Part shown: positions 8,962 through 25,328 of the stretch, piece by piece | How the letters are laid out: each line of letters begins with the position of its first letter | Position numbering within the stretch: the stretch's first letter is position 1 | Virus record (IMG/VR): IMGVR_UViG_3300048854_000081 | Span: 192,001 to 256,000 of that record | DNA: 64,000 nucleotides | Direction: 5' to 3' (one strand) | Origin: a virus | Lineage: Duplodnaviria > Caudoviricetes | The notes under the pieces: generated by a model | What the model was told of the DNA's origin: nothing | What the model saw: only the letters and a program-made list of their open reading frames with translations | Database searches by the model: none | Made by a program: the position numbers and the translations under genes

Positions 8962-9396
8962 ATGTCGGAAGAAATAGTCCGAAGATCAAAGCAGATCATC
9001 GTTATACGTAAAGATTTAAAGATGCGTAGAGGTAAGGAAGTTGCTCAAGGATCGCATGCCAGTATGGGTGCTCTTCTTAATAAGATGAGCAGATGCATCC
9101 ATGTAGTACCGAAGTCAGAAGAATATGGTGTCGCAAGGTGCTTGAATTTCATGAGCACTTCTGCTATGTTCGACTGGATCGAGAATTCATTTACCAAAAT
9201 CTGTGTGTACGTGAACTCTGAACAAGAGTTGGTCGATTTACATTTTGCAGCGGTGCAAGCATCGCTTCCTAACTGTTTGATCACGGATAGTGGTGCTACC
9301 GAATTCCATGGTGTTCCAACTAAGACGGCTCTAGCCATAGGACCAGCTTGGGATGATGAGCTTAAACCGTTAACCGGTCATCTACCTCTACTGTAA
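8962..9396 (+). CDS. Peptidyl-tRNA hydrolase, Pth2 family
   Basis: KQIIVIRKDLKMRRGK..AQGSHA; DSGATEF; TALAIGP; TGHLPLL. Confidence 0.93.
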   Translation: MSEEIVRRSKQIIVIRKDLKMRRGKEVAQGSHASMGALLNKMSRCIHVVPKSEEYGVARCLNFMSTSAMFDWIENSFTKICVYVNSEQELVDLHFAAVQASLPNCLITDSGATEFHGVPTKTALAIGPAWDDELKPLTGHLPLL

Positions 9397-9442
9397 AAAT
9401 AACAATTTTTCTGCGACTACACTAAATAGATTTACAAGGTAC

Positions 9443-9470
9443 TTGACAGGAAGTCTTTTCATGTTAAAGT
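9443..9470 (+). promoter_or_regulatory. Sigma70-type promoter of tRNA cluster 1 leader (late-type CTAAATA also at 9422-9428)
   Basis: TTGACA-16nt-TAAAGT with extended TG. Confidence 0.65.
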
Positions 9471-9508
9471 ACACCCACTAATCAACCCGAAGAACGAACC
9501 GAAATATC

Positions 9509-9607
9509 ATGAACATTTTTAATATTCACAACTATGATCATAATATCGACTATAAATTTAGTCGCGGTGCTTCTTTGACTGTGGAAATGGACAAGACTTG
9601 TATATAA
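9509..9607 (+). CDS. Putative attenuator leader peptide MNIFNIHNYDHNIDYKFSRGASLTVEMDKTCI
   Basis: 33-codon uORF between promoter and terminator; codons 2-17 match the tRNA set of the downstream cluster; weak SD. Confidence 0.7.
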   Translation: MNIFNIHNYDHNIDYKFSRGASLTVEMDKTCI

Positions 9608-9641
9608 GTTAACTCCAAGGAAACAAAGAAAAGAAGCCCGC
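9564..9641 (+). promoter_or_regulatory. Putative antiterminator
   Basis: GCGG-T-GCTTCTTT (9564-9576) is complementary to AAAGAAGC-CCGC (9630-9641), the 5' arm of the terminator. Confidence 0.7.
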
Positions 9642-9660
9642 CAAGAAAGCGGGCTTTTTT
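9631..9660 (+). terminator. Intrinsic terminator (attenuator) directly upstream of the first tRNA
   Basis: aagcccgc-caagaaa-gcgggctt followed by T-tract. Confidence 0.9.
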
Positions 9661-9674
9661 ATTGCAACAAATTT

Positions 9675-9759
9675 GGGTCGGTAGTCCCGTATGGTTCGGG
9701 GGGAGTCTGTAAAACTTCTGTCATTGACCAGCTAGGTTCGATTCCTAGTCGGCCCACCA
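9675..9759 (+). tRNA. tRNA-Tyr(GTA)
   Basis: Cloverleaf, loop ctGTAaa, T-loop, encoded CCA. Confidence 0.9.
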
Positions 9760-9770
9760 AATTACAAGTG

Positions 9771-9799
9771 TTGACAAGCTAGTTTAAAACGTGTAGAAT
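9771..9799 (+). promoter_or_regulatory. Sigma70-type promoter inside tRNA cluster
   Basis: TTGACA-17-TAGAAT. Confidence 0.65.
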
Positions 9800-9826
9800 G
9801 TCGAAAACAAGTTTGTCAAAAAATAC

Positions 9827-9902
9827 GGAAAGGTGACAGTGATGGTTCATGTGGCGGTCTGAAAAGCCGTAGATGTCGGTTCGATCCCGACCCTTTCCAC
9901 CA
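9827..9902 (+). tRNA. tRNA-Phe(GAA)
   Basis: Loop ctGAAaa, acceptor ggaaagg/cctttcc, CCA. Confidence 0.9.
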
Positions 9903-9922
9903 AATAAAAAGAGAGCAAGATA

Positions 9923-10252
9923 ATGGACACGAATTTCAATAAAAACTTCCTTACGAATACAGATGATACAGGCCGCTTTGTGGTCACTTCTCAGCGTACA
10001 GGTCGTGTCTATTATGTTGAACCGATTGACGACCGTCAGGCAACTGATTGGACGAAGTGGGGTTCTATCGATCCTGCGACTGGTAAGCTAATGAATAAAC
10101 ATGCATTCCGTAAATATCATGGTGCAGTTTCAGAAGAAGAAAGTCTAGTCAAGTTGGAAAATGGTTTTAATAAAGTACACATGTTGGAACGCGGTACCAG
10201 TCCACATCACGCAATTGATGTCATTGATGCCCAATATCCAGATAAGGTGTAA
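9923..10252 (+). CDS. Hypothetical phage protein
   Basis: 109-aa ORF between tRNAs. Confidence 0.7.
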   Translation: MDTNFNKNFLTNTDDTGRFVVTSQRTGRVYYVEPIDDRQATDWTKWGSIDPATGKLMNKHAFRKYHGAVSEEESLVKLENGFNKVHMLERGTSPHHAIDVIDAQYPDKV

Positions 10253-10264
10253 TTTAAGAGTTAT

Positions 10265-10347
10265 GTAAGCGTGGGCGAGTGGTTATGCCAGCAGACTGTA
10301 AATCTGCCTCCTAGCGGAAACTGTAGGTTCGAATCCTACCGCTTACA
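10265..10347 (+). tRNA. tRNA-Tyr(GTA), CCA not encoded
   Basis: gcaga-ctGTAaa-tctgc, long variable arm. Confidence 0.88.
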
Positions 10348-10408
10348 CATTCGGTTCGAATAAGAATTCGAACCATAAATACATGAAGAATACAGAGTAA
10401 GACACTTC

Positions 10409-11035
10409 ATGTACTATACGATTTATAAGACTACCAACTTGAAAAATGGTAAGTATTATTTGGGTATGCATCAGACTAAAAATTTGGATGATGGATATAT
10501 CGGATCAGGAAAATTGCTCCGACGTGCGATTGAAAAATATGGATTTGATTCTTTCAAGAAAGAAATTCTTTTTGTATTTGACAATTCAGCCGACATGTAT
10601 ACTAAAGAACGAGAGTTAATAACGGAGGATGAAATTAAGAACCCTCTTTGTTACAATCTTGCTCCGGGTGGTTGGGGTGGGAATAGAATTATAGATAAAA
10701 CTCACAAGGTATGGTCAGTTGAACACTTTGTGATGATGCATGAAATTCTTAGTGAAAAGATCAAGAACGATCCACGTACTAAGGAAATTTTTAAGAATAA
10801 TGGGTTGAGGATGGCCGCAGTTATTAATAATGGCGACTACCACAATCCACGTATGACCGGTAAGACTCACAAGGATTCTACCAAAGAAAAAATGAGATTA
10901 TCAAAAGTCGGAAAAGTAAATGGTGTTGATAATCCAAGCTATGGTACGATGTGGATTACTGACGGTATCAATAATAGAAAGGTCAAGAAAGATTCTATTA
11001 TTCCCGAAGGCTGGCGTAAAGGAAGAAAGTTTTAA
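10409..11035 (+). mobile_element. Free-standing GIY-YIG (Seg-like) homing endonuclease with NUMOD3
   Basis: YTIYKTTN..NGKYYLG, YIGSG, YNL..GG, GKTH.DSTKEKMR. Confidence 0.9.
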
Positions 11036-11039
11036 TATG

Positions 11040-11068
11040 TTGACATGATCCTTTAAGAAAGATATTAT
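11040..11068 (+). promoter_or_regulatory. Sigma70-type promoter
   Basis: TTGACA-17-TATTAT. Confidence 0.65.
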
Positions 11069-11091
11069 GTCATCATAACGGAAACAGTATA

Positions 11092-11331
11092 ATGAATGAT
11101 GCACCACAGATTGTAACAGAAGAAGTAACACCAGAAGTTGTTGTTGAAACAAACGTAAAGCAGACTCTAAAGCGTAATTCATTGGGTCAGTTTTATCGTA
11201 AGCTTGGACGTGTAGTTGTTCCGCATGGTCAGACTTACAATGTTGGTAGCAATCGTACTAAGGCCGCGCTTTCGGTTATTAAGAAAGCTGCGAAGAGAGC
11301 ACGACGCGCTGCTAAGCGTTTGGGTCAGTAA
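11092..11331 (+). CDS. Small basic hypothetical protein
   Basis: Lys/Arg-rich C-terminus. Confidence 0.6.
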   Translation: MNDAPQIVTEEVTPEVVVETNVKQTLKRNSLGQFYRKLGRVVVPHGQTYNVGSNRTKAALSVIKKAAKRARRAAKRLGQ

Positions 11332-11334
11332 ATC

Positions 11335-11595
11335 ATGGCTCGCGTAAGAGTTGATGTGGAAGAGGTTCTAAAGCTAAGAGCTAGGATGGATGAAATAAAC
11401 AGCCACGCTCTCAAGAATGTAGACTTCTACCACAAAGGTAAGAAGGTAAAAATTTCAGCCGAAGATATTAACGACTGGAAATATACAGGCTTATCGACAA
11501 TGTTTTTCGTCGAGACCGTGATTAAGGATGAGTACTTGCTAGGATTGACCGTAATCAGAGACGAATGCGGTAATCCGATAGCAGTACAAGGGTAA
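11335..11595 (+). CDS. Hypothetical protein
   Basis: ORF ending just before tRNA-Ile. Confidence 0.6.
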   Translation: MARVRVDVEEVLKLRARMDEINSHALKNVDFYHKGKKVKISAEDINDWKYTGLSTMFFVETVIKDEYLLGLTVIRDECGNPIAVQG

Positions 11596-11597
11596 AT

Positions 11598-11673
11598 GGT
11601 TCTGTAGCTCAGTTGGTAGAGCAATCGACCGATAATCGATATGTCGCAGGTTCGAATCCTGCCGGAACCACCA
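11598..11673 (+). tRNA. tRNA-Ile(GAT)
   Basis: atcga-ccGATaa-tcgat (C33), CCA. Confidence 0.92.
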
Positions 11674-11694
11674 GTTTTTGTTTGGTAAAAGCGA

Positions 11695-11760
11695 GTGATG
11701 ATAGTATAATGATAGTACTCCACATGGCTGGGCAGCGTGGGTTTGATTCCCACCATCATG
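11695..11760 (+). pseudogene. tRNA-like element with truncated anticodon arm
   Basis: D-arm agta/tact, T-arm gtggg-tttgatt-cccac, acceptor gtgatg/catcat, no CCA. Confidence 0.55.
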
Positions 11761-11802
11761 AGCGCTAGGTAGTGTACATACATAGCACCAAACAAGTTTT
11801 AT

Positions 11803-11877
11803 GGAGCGTGAAGCATCTGGTGAGGCTGGCACACTGTCTATGTGCTGAGACGGGTTCGATCCCCGTACGTTCCGCCA
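11803..11877 (+). tRNA. tRNA-Asp(GTC)
   Basis: gcaca-ctGTCta-tgtgc, GCCA. Confidence 0.9.
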
Positions 11878-11884
11878 GTTTTAC

Positions 11885-11958
11885 AGTGGTGTCGTATAAA
11901 GGTATTATGTCGGTCTGTCTAACCGAAGAAGCGGGATCGTTACCCGTCATCACTGCCA
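11885..11958 (+). tRNA. tRNA-Asp(GTC), second divergent copy
   Basis: tcggt-ctGTCta-accga, atypical T-loop, GCCA. Confidence 0.82.
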
Positions 11959-11968
11959 GTTTTAAAAT

Positions 11969-12063
11969 GGGCAAGGTACCCCGTATGGAATCGGGGATTT
12001 AGCTGAAAAGCTAAAATACTGCAAACTCAACAATTGTAGGTTCGAATCCTATCTTGCCCACCA
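11969..12063 (+). tRNA. Atypical tRNA (Phe GAA-like, 8-nt or 6-nt anticodon loop, long variable region)
   Basis: tttag-ctGAAaag-ctaaa; acceptor gggcaag/cttgccc; ACCA. Confidence 0.6.
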
Positions 12064-12065
12064 TT

Positions 12066-12200
12066 TGTACTCGCTACTATTTCATGCAAATGATCTTCTG
12101 TAGTGCCAAATCCTAGAGGTCTGGACCCAATGTCATTTTCTTAGTTACTAAGATATTAGGTGAAAACTAAACTGAGCGCACCACAGCGAGAAGTGGACCA
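12066..12200 (+). ncRNA. Unidentified structured RNA ending in ACCA
   Basis: ctcgct/agcgag closing stem, internal hairpins including a GCAA tetraloop, lies between tRNAs. Confidence 0.45.
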
Positions 12201-12205
12201 GTTTT

Positions 12206-12281
12206 GGACAGTTAGCGCTCTGGTGATTGCACGGGTCTGTTAAACCCGGTTAGGTGGGTCCGATTCCCACACTGTCCGCCA
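12206..12281 (+). tRNA. tRNA-Asn(GTT)
   Basis: cgggt-ctGTTaa-acccg, GCCA. Confidence 0.88.
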
Positions 12282-12335
12282 TTCATAGTTAGCTGATAGG
12301 TATAAATACATGGGTAACCGTGAATTTATCAGCTA

Positions 12336-12974
12336 ATGAAAATAGAAGATGTAGATTTAGAAACACTGAAAAGAGTTGTATCAGAAAATAAATCCAAAAG
12401 GCAAGTCTTACTTTATTTTGGGATTTCTAGTAAGAATGGAAATCAGAACGCTAAACTAGATCGAATTATTAAAGATAATAATATAGAGTCATCCCATTTC
12501 TCTAGAGATAAAGATTTTTCTATAATAGATAGTATTATTAGTACATGTGTATCTTATAAAGATATTGGTGTAAGAATGGGCATAGCACATGATGATAAAT
12601 CCATGCATGCCAGTTATTATACTAAGATCAGAAATTATATAGAATCTAACAATTTAGATATTTCACATTTTAATGATGGTGGTAGATATCATAATGCCGG
12701 AATACGATATTCATTAGAAAATATATTTGTTGAAAAATCTGAAGTGTCTAAACAAACACTAAAGAAAAGATATATAAAATATAGAATTGAAAATGATATA
12801 CAGGTAAGTTGTTGTGACCGATGTAGGATAAGCGAATGGATGGGTGATCCTCTAAGTTTGCAGTTAGATCATATCAATGGTACAAATGATGATAATAGGA
12901 TTGACAATCTCAGATTGATATGTCCTAATTGTCATTCACAGACAGAAACGTTTGCTGGTAAAAATAGAAATTAA
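12336..12974 (+). mobile_element. HNH homing endonuclease
   Basis: CDRC...LQLDHING..DNRIDNLRLICPNCHSQT; TATAAATA at 12301. Confidence 0.9.
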
Positions 12975-12984
12975 AGTTTAATGT

Positions 12985-13113
12985 TCTTCAGTAGCATAGT
13001 GGCCTAATGCATCGGACTGTGGATCAAGACGTAAAAGCGTCCAAGGCTAGTGCAAGTCTAGTAGATCAAAGATAATCCGGGGATCGTGAGTTCGACTCTC
13101 ACCTGAAGAGCCA
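12985..13113 (+). tRNA. tRNA (most likely Asn GTT) interrupted by a 52-nt insertion in the anticodon loop
   Basis: Intact acceptor, D, anticodon stem (tcgga/tccgg) and T arms; ctgt[52 nt]taa; G73. Confidence 0.7.
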
Positions 13114-13148
13114 GATTTAGTAAGACCAAAGTATGTAGAGTACTTTGG

Positions 13149-13226
13149 GGTGTCGGTGATGGAATTGGTAGACATGACGCACTGTGAATGCGTATTTTGC
13201 GGGATCGTACCCCGTCTGGCACCCCA
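13149..13226 (+). tRNA. tRNA-His(GTG)
   Basis: acgca-ctGTGaa-tgcgt; G-1 and C73, CCA. Confidence 0.88.
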
Positions 13227-13244
13227 AAGTACTTTAGGAATAAT

Positions 13245-13364
13245 ATGAATATTAAAATGATTTGGAATAAGACACTTGGTGTTATGAGTGATTTATTCGA
13301 TACGGTATTCACAGCAATCGATGCCATAGCTTCACTTTTTGATGGTATTGACATCGACGATTAA
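13245..13364 (+). CDS. Possible small acidic peptide (39 aa)
   Basis: AGGA SD then MNIKMIWNKTLG...GIDIDD, fills the gap between tRNAs. Confidence 0.35.
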   Translation: MNIKMIWNKTLGVMSDLFDTVFTAIDAIASLFDGIDIDD

Positions 13365-13368
13365 ATAC

Positions 13369-13443
13369 GGGATTATAGCTCAAAGGCAGAGCAAGTGGCT
13401 TTTAACCACGAGGTTGAGATTTCGAAATTCTCTAGTCCCACCA
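13369..13443 (+). tRNA. tRNA-Lys(TTT)
   Basis: gtgg-ctTTTaa-ccac, ACCA. Confidence 0.85.
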
Positions 13444-13449
13444 TTTTAC

Positions 13450-13525
13450 GGAACGGTAGCTTAACTGGTAAAGTCGCTGACTCTTAATCAGCTTGATGTG
13501 AGTTCGACTCTCACTCGTTCCACCA
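13450..13525 (+). tRNA. tRNA-Lys(CTT)
   Basis: gctga-ctCTTaa-tcagc, ACCA. Confidence 0.9.
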
Positions 13526-13530
13526 GACAT

Positions 13531-13555
13531 AAAAGCACCCTCAGGGTGCTTTTTT
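13531..13555 (+). terminator. Terminator ending tRNA cluster 1
   Basis: aaaagcaccc-tca-gggtgctttttt. Confidence 0.85.
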
Positions 13556-13583
13556 CGTATCCTCACTCACTAAAAAGAATACC

Positions 13584-14408
13584 ATGCATTGGATTCTCCA
13601 AAATAATCTCTTCAATGAAGCTGCCTACGCCACTCTTCTTGAGACGCTAGAGCGGTTCTCCATTCCATACTCTATCCACAAGGTTGTCCCCTTCGTAGGT
13701 GAGCTTGTCCCTGAGCCTACCATCGATCATAAGAATGTGATCTGTATGGGTTCCTACTCCCTCCGTCATGCTGCCAAGAAAGCTGGCTGGAATCCCGGTG
13801 TCTTTGACCTTGAGCCTTTCAACTTTCAGGTCCAACTTGAGCACTGGGGTGACCACATGCTCAATGCTGATGCCATTGTTTGTAAGTTTAAGGACGTTGA
13901 CTTTGAGGGTGAACGCTTCATCCGTCCTATCGAAGACAGTAAGGTATTTGCTGGAAACGTCTTTGACCGTCTATACTTCAAGGACTGGCAACACAAAGTT
14001 TGTGATCTAGAGGAAGACTATGGTAATTCGCTTACCAAGGACACTCTGGTTCAGGTCTGTCCACTAAAGCAAATTTATGCCGAGTACCGATTCTGGATTG
14101 TCAATCAGAAGATCGTTTCTGCATCACTCTACAAACGTGGTGATAATGTAATATATTCTTCGGACGTTGATCAGCGGTTCCATAATTATGTGAATCAGAT
14201 TTTACGTACCAAGAATCGAGTAACAGATATCACGTTGAGTGTAGAGAACAAAGGGTGGGCACCACATGATGCGTTTGTCATCGATGTGGCTGATACCGAC
14301 CAAGGATTGAAGGTAGTTGAAATTAACACTTTGAATTCCAGTGGATTCTATGCTTGTAACCTAACCGATTTGGTTTTAACTCTTGAAAGAGAATTTAATA
14401 ATGATTAA
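13584..14408 (+). CDS. ATP-grasp protein (DUF4343/R2K-like)
   Basis: FIRP..DSKVFAG, EYRFWIV, VIDVA, VVEIN..NSSGFY. Confidence 0.85.
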   Translation: MHWILQNNLFNEAAYATLLETLERFSIPYSIHKVVPFVGELVPEPTIDHKNVICMGSYSLRHAAKKAGWNPGVFDLEPFNFQVQLEHWGDHMLNADAIVCKFKDVDFEGERFIRPIEDSKVFAGNVFDRLYFKDWQHKVCDLEEDYGNSLTKDTLVQVCPLKQIYAEYRFWIVNQKIVSASLYKRGDNVIYSSDVDQRFHNYVNQILRTKNRVTDITLSVENKGWAPHDAFVIDVADTDQGLKVVEINTLNSSGFYACNLTDLVLTLEREFNND

Positions 14409-24044: not shown

Positions 24045-25328
24045 ATGGCTAAGAAATATGCTATGCTTGTCAAAGTTGATGGCAGCAATAACAATAACAA
24101 GTTCTATGAGATTACATGGAATGATGACGACTCTGTAACCGCTCGTTATGGCCGCAATGGCGATAATGGTGTTACCGAACACAAGGGTCATGGTGAAACT
24201 GCCTTTCTTAAGGTCTTCAAAGCCAAGACCAGTGCAAGCAAGGGTTATAAGCAAGTTGATGTTCTTACCGGTACTGACTCTGGCATTCCCACGGGTGGTG
24301 TTTCCAAGGTTACTGAAAGCCTTGCTGAAATCGCCAAGCGTGATATTAGCAACAACAATCCTGTTATGGCCGCGCTGCTGGACAAGCTGGCTAAGATCAA
24401 CAAGTACGAACTGATGAAGAGCACTGGCGATAAGATCGACATCGTTGATGGTGTGGTCCGTACAGTTCTCGGTCCTATCACGCTGAGTGCCGTGGGCGAA
24501 GCCCGTAGCGAACTCATCAAGCTTTCCAAGTTCGTTGAAACCGAAGATTATGGTGATGAATACGGTTCACTCCTTAATCAGTACCTAAGCATCATTCCGC
24601 AGGCTGTTCCGCGTAAGCGCGGCTGGGATAAGGAATTCTTTGGTAAGGTAAGCTCACTAGCTTCCCAGTCTGCTCTTCTTGACCAGATTGAAACCTCGAT
24701 CACCAATTACAAGCCTGCTCCGGTTGTGGATAACGGTGTACAGAAGGAAGTTGCTCGTGTCTTTGGTCATAGTCTTGAAATCGTTGAAGACGGTGCCACG
24801 ATTGATCGTATTACCAAGTTCTATAAAGATAATATGAATCGTAGCCATCAGTGTGCACACCTGAAGCTTAAGCGTATCTACAAGGTATCCAATCCTGATA
24901 CCGAAGCACGCTATAAGACCGCACTACAGCGTGTCGGTAACGAGAAGCAGCTATGGCATGGTACCCGTGCATTCAACGTACTCTCGATCCTCAAAGGTGG
25001 TTTGATCATCCCTACCTCTGCTGGTGGTTATCACATCACGGGTCGTATGTTCGGTGATGGACTGTACTTCAGCGATCAGAGCACCAAATCACTAAACTAT
25101 GCCTACGGTTACTGGGGTGGCGGTGGTCGTGAAGAGAATTGCTTTATGTTCTTGGCTGATGTAGCCATGGGTAAGCATTTCACACCAAGCAACCCGATTC
25201 AGCGTATCCCAGCCGGTTACGATTCATGCTTCGCTATTGGCGGTCGCAGTGGTGTACAGAACAATGAAATGATCGTATATTCACTCGATCAGGCTAATCT
25301 CGGTTACCTGTGTGAATTCGACGCTTGA
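24045..25328 (+). CDS. WGR-domain poly(ADP-ribose) polymerase-like protein
   Basis: NNNKFY...YGR (WGR); LWHGT, GRMFGDGLYFS, KSLNY, NNEMIVY (H-Y-E triad). Confidence 0.92.
   Translation: MAKKYAMLVKVDGSNNNNKFYEITWNDDDSVTARYGRNGDNGVTEHKGHGETAFLKVFKAKTSASKGYKQVDVLTGTDSGIPTGGVSKVTESLAEIAKRDISNNNPVMAALLDKLAKINKYELMKSTGDKIDIVDGVVRTVLGPITLSAVGEARSELIKLSKFVETEDYGDEYGSLLNQYLSIIPQAVPRKRGWDKEFFGKVSSLASQSALLDQIETSITNYKPAPVVDNGVQKEVARVFGHSLEIVEDGATIDRITKFYKDNMNRSHQCAHLKLKRIYKVSNPDTEARYKTALQRVGNEKQLWHGTRAFNVLSILKGGLIIPTSAGGYHITGRMFGDGLYFSDQSTKSLNYAYGYWGGGGREENCFMFLADVAMGKHFTPSNPIQRIPAGYDSCFAIGGRSGVQNNEMIVYSLDQANLGYLCEFDA

Follow-up and report, generated by a model that had tools for sequence, protein, structure and literature searches.

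A codon-matched leader as a candidate attenuator of a phage tRNA operon

What is the role of a short open reading frame that lies, together with a terminator, between the promoter of a phage tRNA cluster and its first tRNA gene? The question is raised by a 64,000-nucleotide stretch, here called the window, which covers positions 192001-256000 of the 350,036-base virus record IMGVR_UViG_3300048854_000081. The leader of its tRNA cluster is very probably a multivalent ribosome-mediated transcription attenuator, which would act as a feedback on the tRNA supply of the operon, as judged from sequence comparison and modelled RNA folding. The genome (42 % GC, from soil metagenomes) encodes a Gp23-type capsid, a tail sheath and a terminase. 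Nearest to its capsid among cultured relatives were Xanthomonas and Stenotrophomonas jumbo phages (63-66 %), followed by Ralstonia phage RsoM2USA (48 %), and the host is probably a proteobacterium. Genome-wide, 41 tRNAs were called in about a dozen groups. Two runs, from which the assembly itself may derive, covered positions 9000-14000 in a single contig with zero differences; none of the sequencing runs listed as containing the sequence was an RNA run.

All features of the cluster are located on the plus strand. A sigma-70-type promoter with an extended -10 element was recognised by its motif (TTGACA-16-TGtTAAAGT, 9443-9470), and transcription presumably starts near 9477. The 5' untranslated region (5'UTR) contains a strand, segment 1 (9487-9501), that according to duplex energies can pair with segment 2 as a protector helix. 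The upstream open reading frame (uORF, 9509-9607) comprises 32 codons and a start codon that is kept in the homologues. Its codons 2-17 form the sensor zone (9512-9559), the end of which carries a small conserved hairpin of 6-7 base pairs with covariation (9547-9564). The antiterminator strand follows as segment 2 (9564-9578; core GCTTCTTT at 9569-9576, invariant in seven homologues), then the intrinsic terminator (9630-9660) with segment 3 (9630-9641), which doubles as partner of the antiterminator, and segment 4 with the U-tract (9649-9660). The first gene behind it is tRNA-Tyr(GTA) at 9675-9759. The features of the attenuator class are thus present: a uORF between promoter and first gene, sensor codons matching the product, a terminator ahead of the gene and an antiterminator overlapping the 5' arm of the terminator. 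Promoter, uORF, terminator and first tRNA had been placed at these positions by the first-pass annotation, made from the sequence alone.

The codons of the uORF match the cluster. ARAGORN called ten tRNAs for Tyr, Phe, Ile, Asp, Asn, His and Lys, the same as listed before, and two further tRNA-like genes were added (11968-12062; 12985-13113). All 16 sensor codons fall within the 14 codons that the cluster tRNAs decode, ATA is absent and ten are NAY codons, confirming the earlier count. The sensor residues include each of the seven cluster amino acids and nothing else; the odds that two sets of seven among 20 amino acids coincide exactly are 1 in 77,520. Codons of this set make up 35 % of the codons in long open reading frames, and the run of 16, which starts right after the ATG, is longer than any other cluster-readable run in the six reading frames of the 350-kb genome, where the next ones reach 13 and 12. 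The annotation had named AT-rich codon bias as a caveat and an AT-matched shuffle as the check: among 1,000,000 composition-matched shuffles of the 48 nucleotides, 16 of 16 was reached once, and when the leader was shuffled as a whole 200,000 times, no run exceeded 14. AT content therefore fails to explain the codon run. The remaining tRNAs of the genome read only 0-1 of the 16 codons. An ATG in the +1 frame at 9534 opens a short by-product reading frame without any codon match and was rejected.

Homologous leaders were obtained from six relatives, found via neighbouring proteins and the capsid: L172 (SRR30224679), L298 (SRR29078161), L299 (SRR30003490) and the IMG/VR genomes G001, G003 and G004. 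The annotation had named conservation of uORF and antiterminator in relatives as a check; both, and the terminator as well, are kept in all six. Every homologous leader precedes tRNAs for Tyr, Phe, Ile, Asp, His, Lys and Asn in varying gene order; L298 is a short contig that shows Tyr and Phe only, and the array of G003 has late in the array a weak Leu call and an Ile(TAT) in addition. In the homologues 111 of 114 sensor codons are readable by the cluster, against 11 of 51 in the tails past segment 2, and the three out-of-set codons fall at codons 3-4. The order of residues differs at almost all positions: at least 33 amino-acid differences over 16 columns were observed, nearly all within the set, while a random non-synonymous change would remain within it about 54 % of the time. 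TTA, ATA, CAA, GAA, TCA and stop codons never occur among the 114 codons, which prefer U or A endings and encode most commonly Asn (36/114). The start codon is ATG in six homologues and GTG in G003, the frame is open throughout, insertions and deletions within the sensor zone comprise complete codons, and the core GCTTCTTT starts in all seven three codons past the last sensor codon. Contigs of a closer strain from another study differed by 2-3 % in the leader versus 11-12 % in the flanking genes (P about 2e-6, assuming that the contig pieces belong to one phage). The TTGACA..TG..-10 promoter was found in the equivalent position in G001, G003, G004 and L299; the leaders of L172 and L298 are without a TTGACA promoter of their own. 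In these two contigs a GOLLD RNA lies directly 5' of a tRNA-Glu and the leader (L172:5590-6060, L298:795-1226), and 5' of it extends a longer non-coding region with structure, which opens with a hammerhead-like CTGATGA...GAAA motif.

The other tRNA groups of this genome, of G001 and of G003 have no leader, but a promoter nearby or nothing, and the ATP-grasp relatives P0006, P0013, P0015 and P0020 have no such cluster in the vicinity. When region and leader were compared with cultured phages by BLAST, no homologous leader appeared, and a pattern scan of bacterial genomes, whose matches were not inspected singly, gave no recognisable match. Scans for the terminator only or with loose spacing produced chance matches, and three of five metagenome matches were unrelated.

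The RNA structures were evaluated next to the codon match. The terminator hairpin is part of the minimum-free-energy fold (z -4.1), and in the homologues 100 % of the alignment cells are paired, with one compensatory pair and four one-sided changes. The pairing of the GCGG-containing stretch 9564-9576 with 9630-9641, proposed earlier, forms in the nascent transcript with 12 base pairs over the whole 5' arm of the terminator; in the clade this 2:3 helix has a core of 8 base pairs with 98 % of the cells paired. The small hairpin has 94 % of the cells paired and two pairs changed on both sides. It may be a pause hairpin for RNA polymerase, and it accounts for the conserved Asp-Tyr and Ser codons. 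Duplexes of segments 1 and 2 reached -10.3 to -13.6 kcal/mol in all seven homologues with differing UTR sequences (shuffle P 0.03-0.09 each), and the UTR of L299 gave -13.6 kcal/mol with its own segment 2 versus -1.7 to -6.4 with the segment 2 of others. In the model of the switch the ribosome footprint reached to +16 and pairs spanning the ribosome were forbidden; the values are equilibrium estimates, whereas the process itself is kinetic. In the window, terminator closure was 0.05-0.33 with codons 2-15 in the A-site, 0.63-0.80 at codons 16-17 and 1.00 from codon 18 onwards, so that in the model the flip occurs at codon 16-18, the end of the sensor run, and segment 2 is free when the ribosome stalls earlier. 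L172 and L298 resemble the window, whereas closure in G001, G003 and G004 rose from about 0.4-0.6 to 1.0. Folding with footprints, as the annotation had suggested, reproduced a flip at the sensor end; the effect was weak in L299 and partial in G001 and G003.

Is the match of leader and cluster a property of this sequence family? A generic detector for a short open reading frame, a hairpin with U-tract and then tRNAs was applied to all fetched loci. The window leader ranked second, behind an unannotated leader of RsoM2USA. This phage has two leaders (MG752970 87361-87248 and 112124-112047, minus strand), each with its own antiterminator. The first contains Phe, Asn, Ala, Gln, Arg, Met, Asp, Val, Ile and Lys codons, 29 of 30 matching its own cluster; the second contains Ser, His, Trp, Tyr, Leu, Pro, Val, Glu and Cys codons, stands before the complementary cluster with a match of 19 of 20, and was evaluated by its folds. 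Crossed between the clusters, the leaders matched 1/30 and 1/20. In the IMG/VR contig L584 a Ser/Ile/His/Thr leader stands 5' of Ser, His, Thr and Ile tRNAs (12/16 match), and the Agrobacterium phage Atu_ph07 has a leader of 42 codons (MF403008, about 339246-339118, minus strand). Modelled switches were located at codon 15/16 in L584, where it was sharp, at 28/29 in Atu_ph07 and at 30/31 in the first RsoM2USA leader, in all three coinciding with the end of the matching codons. The co-variation of codon set and array content that the annotation had proposed to look for was hence seen in leaders of unrelated sequence, twice in RsoM2USA and once each in L584 and Atu_ph07. A survey of 289 array starts in 120 viral loci, chosen solely for tandem tRNAs, revealed 47 with a short open reading frame and a terminator; their leader-cluster match was 85.6 compared to 47+-7 after permutation, above all 1000 permutations, with related contigs kept in. 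No leader was detected in front of the tRNA arrays of XacN1, Xoo-sp13, RAS14, Vibrio 2.275.O, PA5oct, Phosso and Hallingskeid by this detector, which can miss leaders for near-complete tRNA sets. Because unrelated leaders match their own clusters and these seven other cultured jumbo phages are without one, the arrangement is patchy, recurrent and independent of any one sequence family. Further candidate leaders were noticed 5' of large tRNA arrays in L476, L497, L504, L555, L593, L492, L577, L556, L524 and L508, several of them spelling 17-20 amino acids in 28-37 codons.

Matched shuffle, conservation in six relatives, footprint folding and co-variation in unrelated leaders together support the attenuator reading of the annotation, and a mechanism can be proposed. 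Host RNA polymerase would initiate at the presumed start, and a ribosome would load onto the uORF. With any of the charged tRNAs for the seven cluster amino acids scarce, the ribosome would pause within codons 2-16 and leave segment 2 free to pair with the emerging segment 3; the terminator could then not close, and the tRNA genes would be transcribed. With fast decoding the ribosome would cross segment 2 and come to rest ahead of segment 3; the 5'UTR would capture segment 2 once it is released, the 3:4 hairpin would form and transcription would halt at about 9660. Translation of the uORF, pausing and read-through are all part of what we infer. Since the products are the very tRNAs sensed, the circuit would be a negative feedback on tRNA supply. 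Shortfalls might originate from host nucleases, breakdown of host RNA or the demand of the phage for AT-rich codons. As natural trigger we favour loss or overdraw of intact tRNA over a shortage of amino acids, because the loop closes only where the amount of tRNA limits and more tRNA cannot cure a lack of amino acid.

Several observations weigh against this mechanism or restrict it. The seven homologues, being related, amount to a single lineage, and the 2:3 helix is invariant in sequence in the clade and therefore offers no compensatory support. In L299 the equilibrium switch is weak, with the terminator at 0.87-0.96 even with a stalled ribosome and only a marginal overlap of the antiterminator, and the switch is only partial (about 0.6) in G001, G003 and the first RsoM2USA leader. 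The trp/his-type geometry assumed in the annotation stands for the early stall, which frees the antiterminator. It does not for the ribosome at the stop codon: the stop lies 19-28 nucleotides past segment 2 in the homologues, 28 in the window, so the antiterminator strand is left uncovered and a helix of 5'UTR and segment 2 or a steric block is needed. Without the steric rule the equilibrium model lets the 2:3 helix re-form with the ribosome at the stop, and blocking was obtained in the model only with the no-spanning rule plus the 5'UTR helix. Termination would consequently rest on a ribosome inside the antiterminator loop, on the loss of the inner stems of this loop and on the 5'UTR helix. 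The Shine-Dalgarno sequence, already considered weak in the annotation, is nearly absent in the window (-1.0 kcal/mol), the weakest of the set (homologues -2.9 to -5.2 kcal/mol). Internal TTGACA promoters occur in six of the seven clusters, so the bypass foreseen in the annotation has real candidates, common to relatives. In the window they are located at 9771-9799 (11/12 match), at 11040-11068 in front of a 79-aa gene (the same promoter and gene are present in L172 and L298) and at 13348, and could supply basal expression downstream of the first Tyr gene, the only tRNA here without a promoter candidate between itself and the terminator. Gating may for this reason be a boost and not an on/off control. 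The internal promoters of relatives are often tied to small inserted genes, and no TTGACA promoter was found behind the leader in the core cluster of G001 or in RsoM2USA cluster 1.

Could the leader be no regulator at all? The uORF might be an accident of AT-rich unstructured DNA and the hairpin a constitutive or leaky terminator, with the tRNAs expressed from internal promoters. The AT-rich codons of the set with their U/A endings, the weak Shine-Dalgarno sequence and the internal promoters would fit, but we regard this as very improbable given the matched shuffle (1e-6), the lack of AT-rich TTA, ATA, CAA, GAA, TCA and stop codons in the sensor zones, the two clusters without a promoter behind the leader and the match of non-AT-rich leaders to non-AT-rich clusters. 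That the uORF acts as a peptide, either as small protein or by arrest of the nascent chain in response to a drug or metabolite, with the codon match being secondary, is hardly credible. Codons ~14-23 are indeed conserved as D-Y-x-x-S-x-G-A-S-L; this stretch overlaps the small hairpin and segment 2, and elsewhere the residues vary freely in order within a constant codon set.

The other two alternatives accept the switch and differ in its natural signal. Asn, Asp, Lys and Ile belong to the aspartate pathway, Phe and Tyr to the aromatic pathway, which would agree with amino-acid starvation sensed via uncharged tRNA as in trp, his and thr operons. Mechanically any shortage of a charged cognate tRNA stalls the ribosome and flips such a leader, as described for pheL (PMC3082878). 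Yet neither biosynthetic enzymes nor synthetases are gated, but tRNAs and small genes of the phage, and additional tRNA would presumably leave the shortage unrelieved; starvation is thus an improbable signal. The switch may also have arisen for the very purpose of signalling attack by host anticodon nucleases or queuosine loss, as stressed by the annotation, which is possible but rather doubtful. Colicin E5 cleaves all four GUN tRNAs. Of the tRNA clusters in the clade this one alone is gated, the others having a direct promoter and no leader, and Asn is the commonest sensor residue (36/114). AriB of PARIS cleaves tRNA-Lys(UUU), Thr(UGU) and to a lesser extent Asn(GUU) with dose-dependent rescue by phage tRNAs (PMC12409363), and PtuAB of retron-Eco7 destroys tRNA-Tyr with a rescue that varies with promoter strength (PMC11555353). 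No single known nuclease, though, matches these seven tRNAs, tRNAs for Phe, Ile and Lys have no queuosine, and Thr(UGU), a prime target of AriB and P2-OLD, is ungated. The two RsoM2USA leaders jointly span almost the whole code, and neither TGT nor RtcB is encoded in the genome. The emphasis on queuosine and nucleases is accordingly not retained, such a trigger being possible but unproven. A search for T4-type RNA ligase gave no match in the genome and was uninformative, its controls being unmatched too; a gene of the CCA/poly(A) polymerase family is present. It is possible, though less likely than not, that large phages of several hosts repeatedly evolved codon-matched attenuators gauging the host tRNA pool, the leader being a list of the tRNAs expected to be lost, and that in this clade the device is an inducible counter-defence releasing replacement Tyr, Phe, Ile, Asp, Asn, His and Lys tRNAs upon cleavage by host immunity. 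One option for the division of labour is that ungated tRNAs are mostly isoacceptors which are probably scarce in a GC-rich host and constantly required, gated ones duplicating major host species that are required just in a shortfall; gated Lys(TTT) and ungated Cys, Gly(GCC), Ser(GCT) and Trp are no clean fit to this.

One tRNA of the cluster deserves attention in connection with the leader. The gene at 12985-13113 has its anticodon split by a 52-nucleotide insert (13021-13072), removal of which yields a canonical tRNA-Asn(GTT). The insert family is shared with L172 and G001, and there the cluster, its leader rich in Asn codons, has no Asn gene other than the split one, suggesting that the split tRNA is processed to a working tRNA. 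Anticodon-split tRNA-Asn(GTT) genes were also noticed at L172:7001-7127, L285:2536-2660 and L299:6857-6964, with folded inserts of 31-53 nucleotides; in three of the genes the insert forms two small hairpins, one of them T-loop-like. The inserts resemble the 'enigmatic' tRNA introns of Lak phages (PMC6784885). A second, distinct conserved anticodon-loop insert of about 60 nucleotides occurs in a tRNA scaffold within this cluster, at L286 (G003:126646-126761) and L299:6717-6848.

The remaining genes complete the cluster. Upstream of the switch and outside it lies a PTH2 peptidyl-tRNA hydrolase gene (8962-9396, Pfam PF01981, E 3e-27), also found a few kb 5' of the leader in L172 and L299. The first Tyr gene is followed by tRNA-Phe(GAA) (9827-9902), a 109-aa gene of no known family (9923-10252), the second tRNA-Tyr(GTA) (10265-10348) and a GIY-YIG, Seg-like homing endonuclease (10409-11035; BLAST of the region, weak Pfam match). 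Homologues of the 109-aa gene recur within tRNA arrays of L166, L299 and RsoM2USA, with L167 as an exception. Further downstream are tRNA-Ile(GAT) (11598-11673), two tRNA-Asp(GTC) (11803-11958), an atypical tRNA-like gene with an 8-nucleotide GAA-containing loop and a long arm (11968-12062; possibly Phe or a pseudogene, with a similar degenerate gene in the G001 cluster), tRNA-Asn(GTT) (12206-12281), an HNH homing endonuclease identified by Pfam search (12336-12974), tRNA-His(GTG) (13150-13226), tRNA-Lys(TTT) with tRNA-Lys(CTT) (13369-13525) and a terminator-like hairpin at the cluster end (13531-13556). Between 11677 and 11796 a degenerate tRNA-like sequence is enclosed by an inverted repeat, a region covered by related-strain contigs too. 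A TAAATA late-promoter-like motif precedes homing endonucleases in tRNA arrays (window 12336, L166:3520, L353 = RsoM2USA) and many tRNA groups of this genome. TAG is rarely used as stop in long reading frames, and the uORF has no in-frame TAG; two CTA-anticodon tRNAs, amber suppressor-like, are encoded at G000:26819-26975 (minus strand, outside the window), and such tRNAs also occur in G001, XacN1, Xoo-sp13, RAS14 and RsoM2USA. Elsewhere in the window (24045-25328) a protein with a WGR and a PARP catalytic domain is encoded, present also in L299.

The purpose of phage tRNAs is debated between codon bias, destruction of host RNA and escape from nucleases (PMC13015707). If the proposed attenuator operates, the phage answers a shortfall of the gated tRNAs and does not carry a fixed supplement, and the condition that flips the leader would show which of these hypotheses holds. 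Because the cultured phages RsoM2USA and Atu_ph07 carry such leaders, unannotated so far, a test is at hand. The leaders may also serve as ready-made multi-codon biosensors for tRNA-targeting toxins.

Among known systems, T-box riboswitches likewise couple tRNA status to termination or antitermination; unlike the phage leader, they recognise a single uncharged tRNA by direct binding and do without a uORF, and a search with RF00230 gave no match at E<=5. The leader stayed under the gathering score of every Rfam family, Trp_leader, Thr_leader, His_leader and Phe_leader included; 9570-9662 scored weakly, with 32 bits on Trp_leader (cut-off 41) and 25 on Thr_leader (cut-off 55). In pheM-pheST of E. 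coli, leader-peptide attenuation of a translation component relieves its own signal, as proposed here, but a synthetase is controlled, with one amino acid, on a bacterial chromosome. The literature search, most subscription journals being outside it, yielded no account of tRNA genes or phage tRNA arrays under attenuation; the mechanism is known from amino-acid operons, and its use on tRNA genes or in phages is, as far as found, apparently undescribed. From the tRNA-rich region of T5, phage Lys, Tyr and Asn tRNAs can likewise replace host tRNAs cleaved by PARIS, retron-Eco7 or PrrC, and the dose matters; unlike here, the accessible parts of these reports describe such regions with a strong promoter and mention no sensing leader (PMC12409363, PMC11555353). 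The closest likeness is to the leader-peptide attenuators of pheL-pheA, trpL and hisL and the multivalent thrL and ilvL, with a short uORF, sensor codons, 1:2, 2:3 and 3:4 alternatives and an intrinsic terminator (PMC3082878). The phage leader departs from these proteobacterial examples in the interleaving of seven amino acids without runs and in a stop codon well past segment 2. No cognate amino-acid biosynthesis operon is located downstream, but tRNAs, small genes and homing endonucleases. Here the controlled genes are tRNA genes of a phage, and the output would be the sensed molecule itself; if this holds true, attenuation extends from amino-acid operons to the self-regulation of tRNA genes and to viruses.

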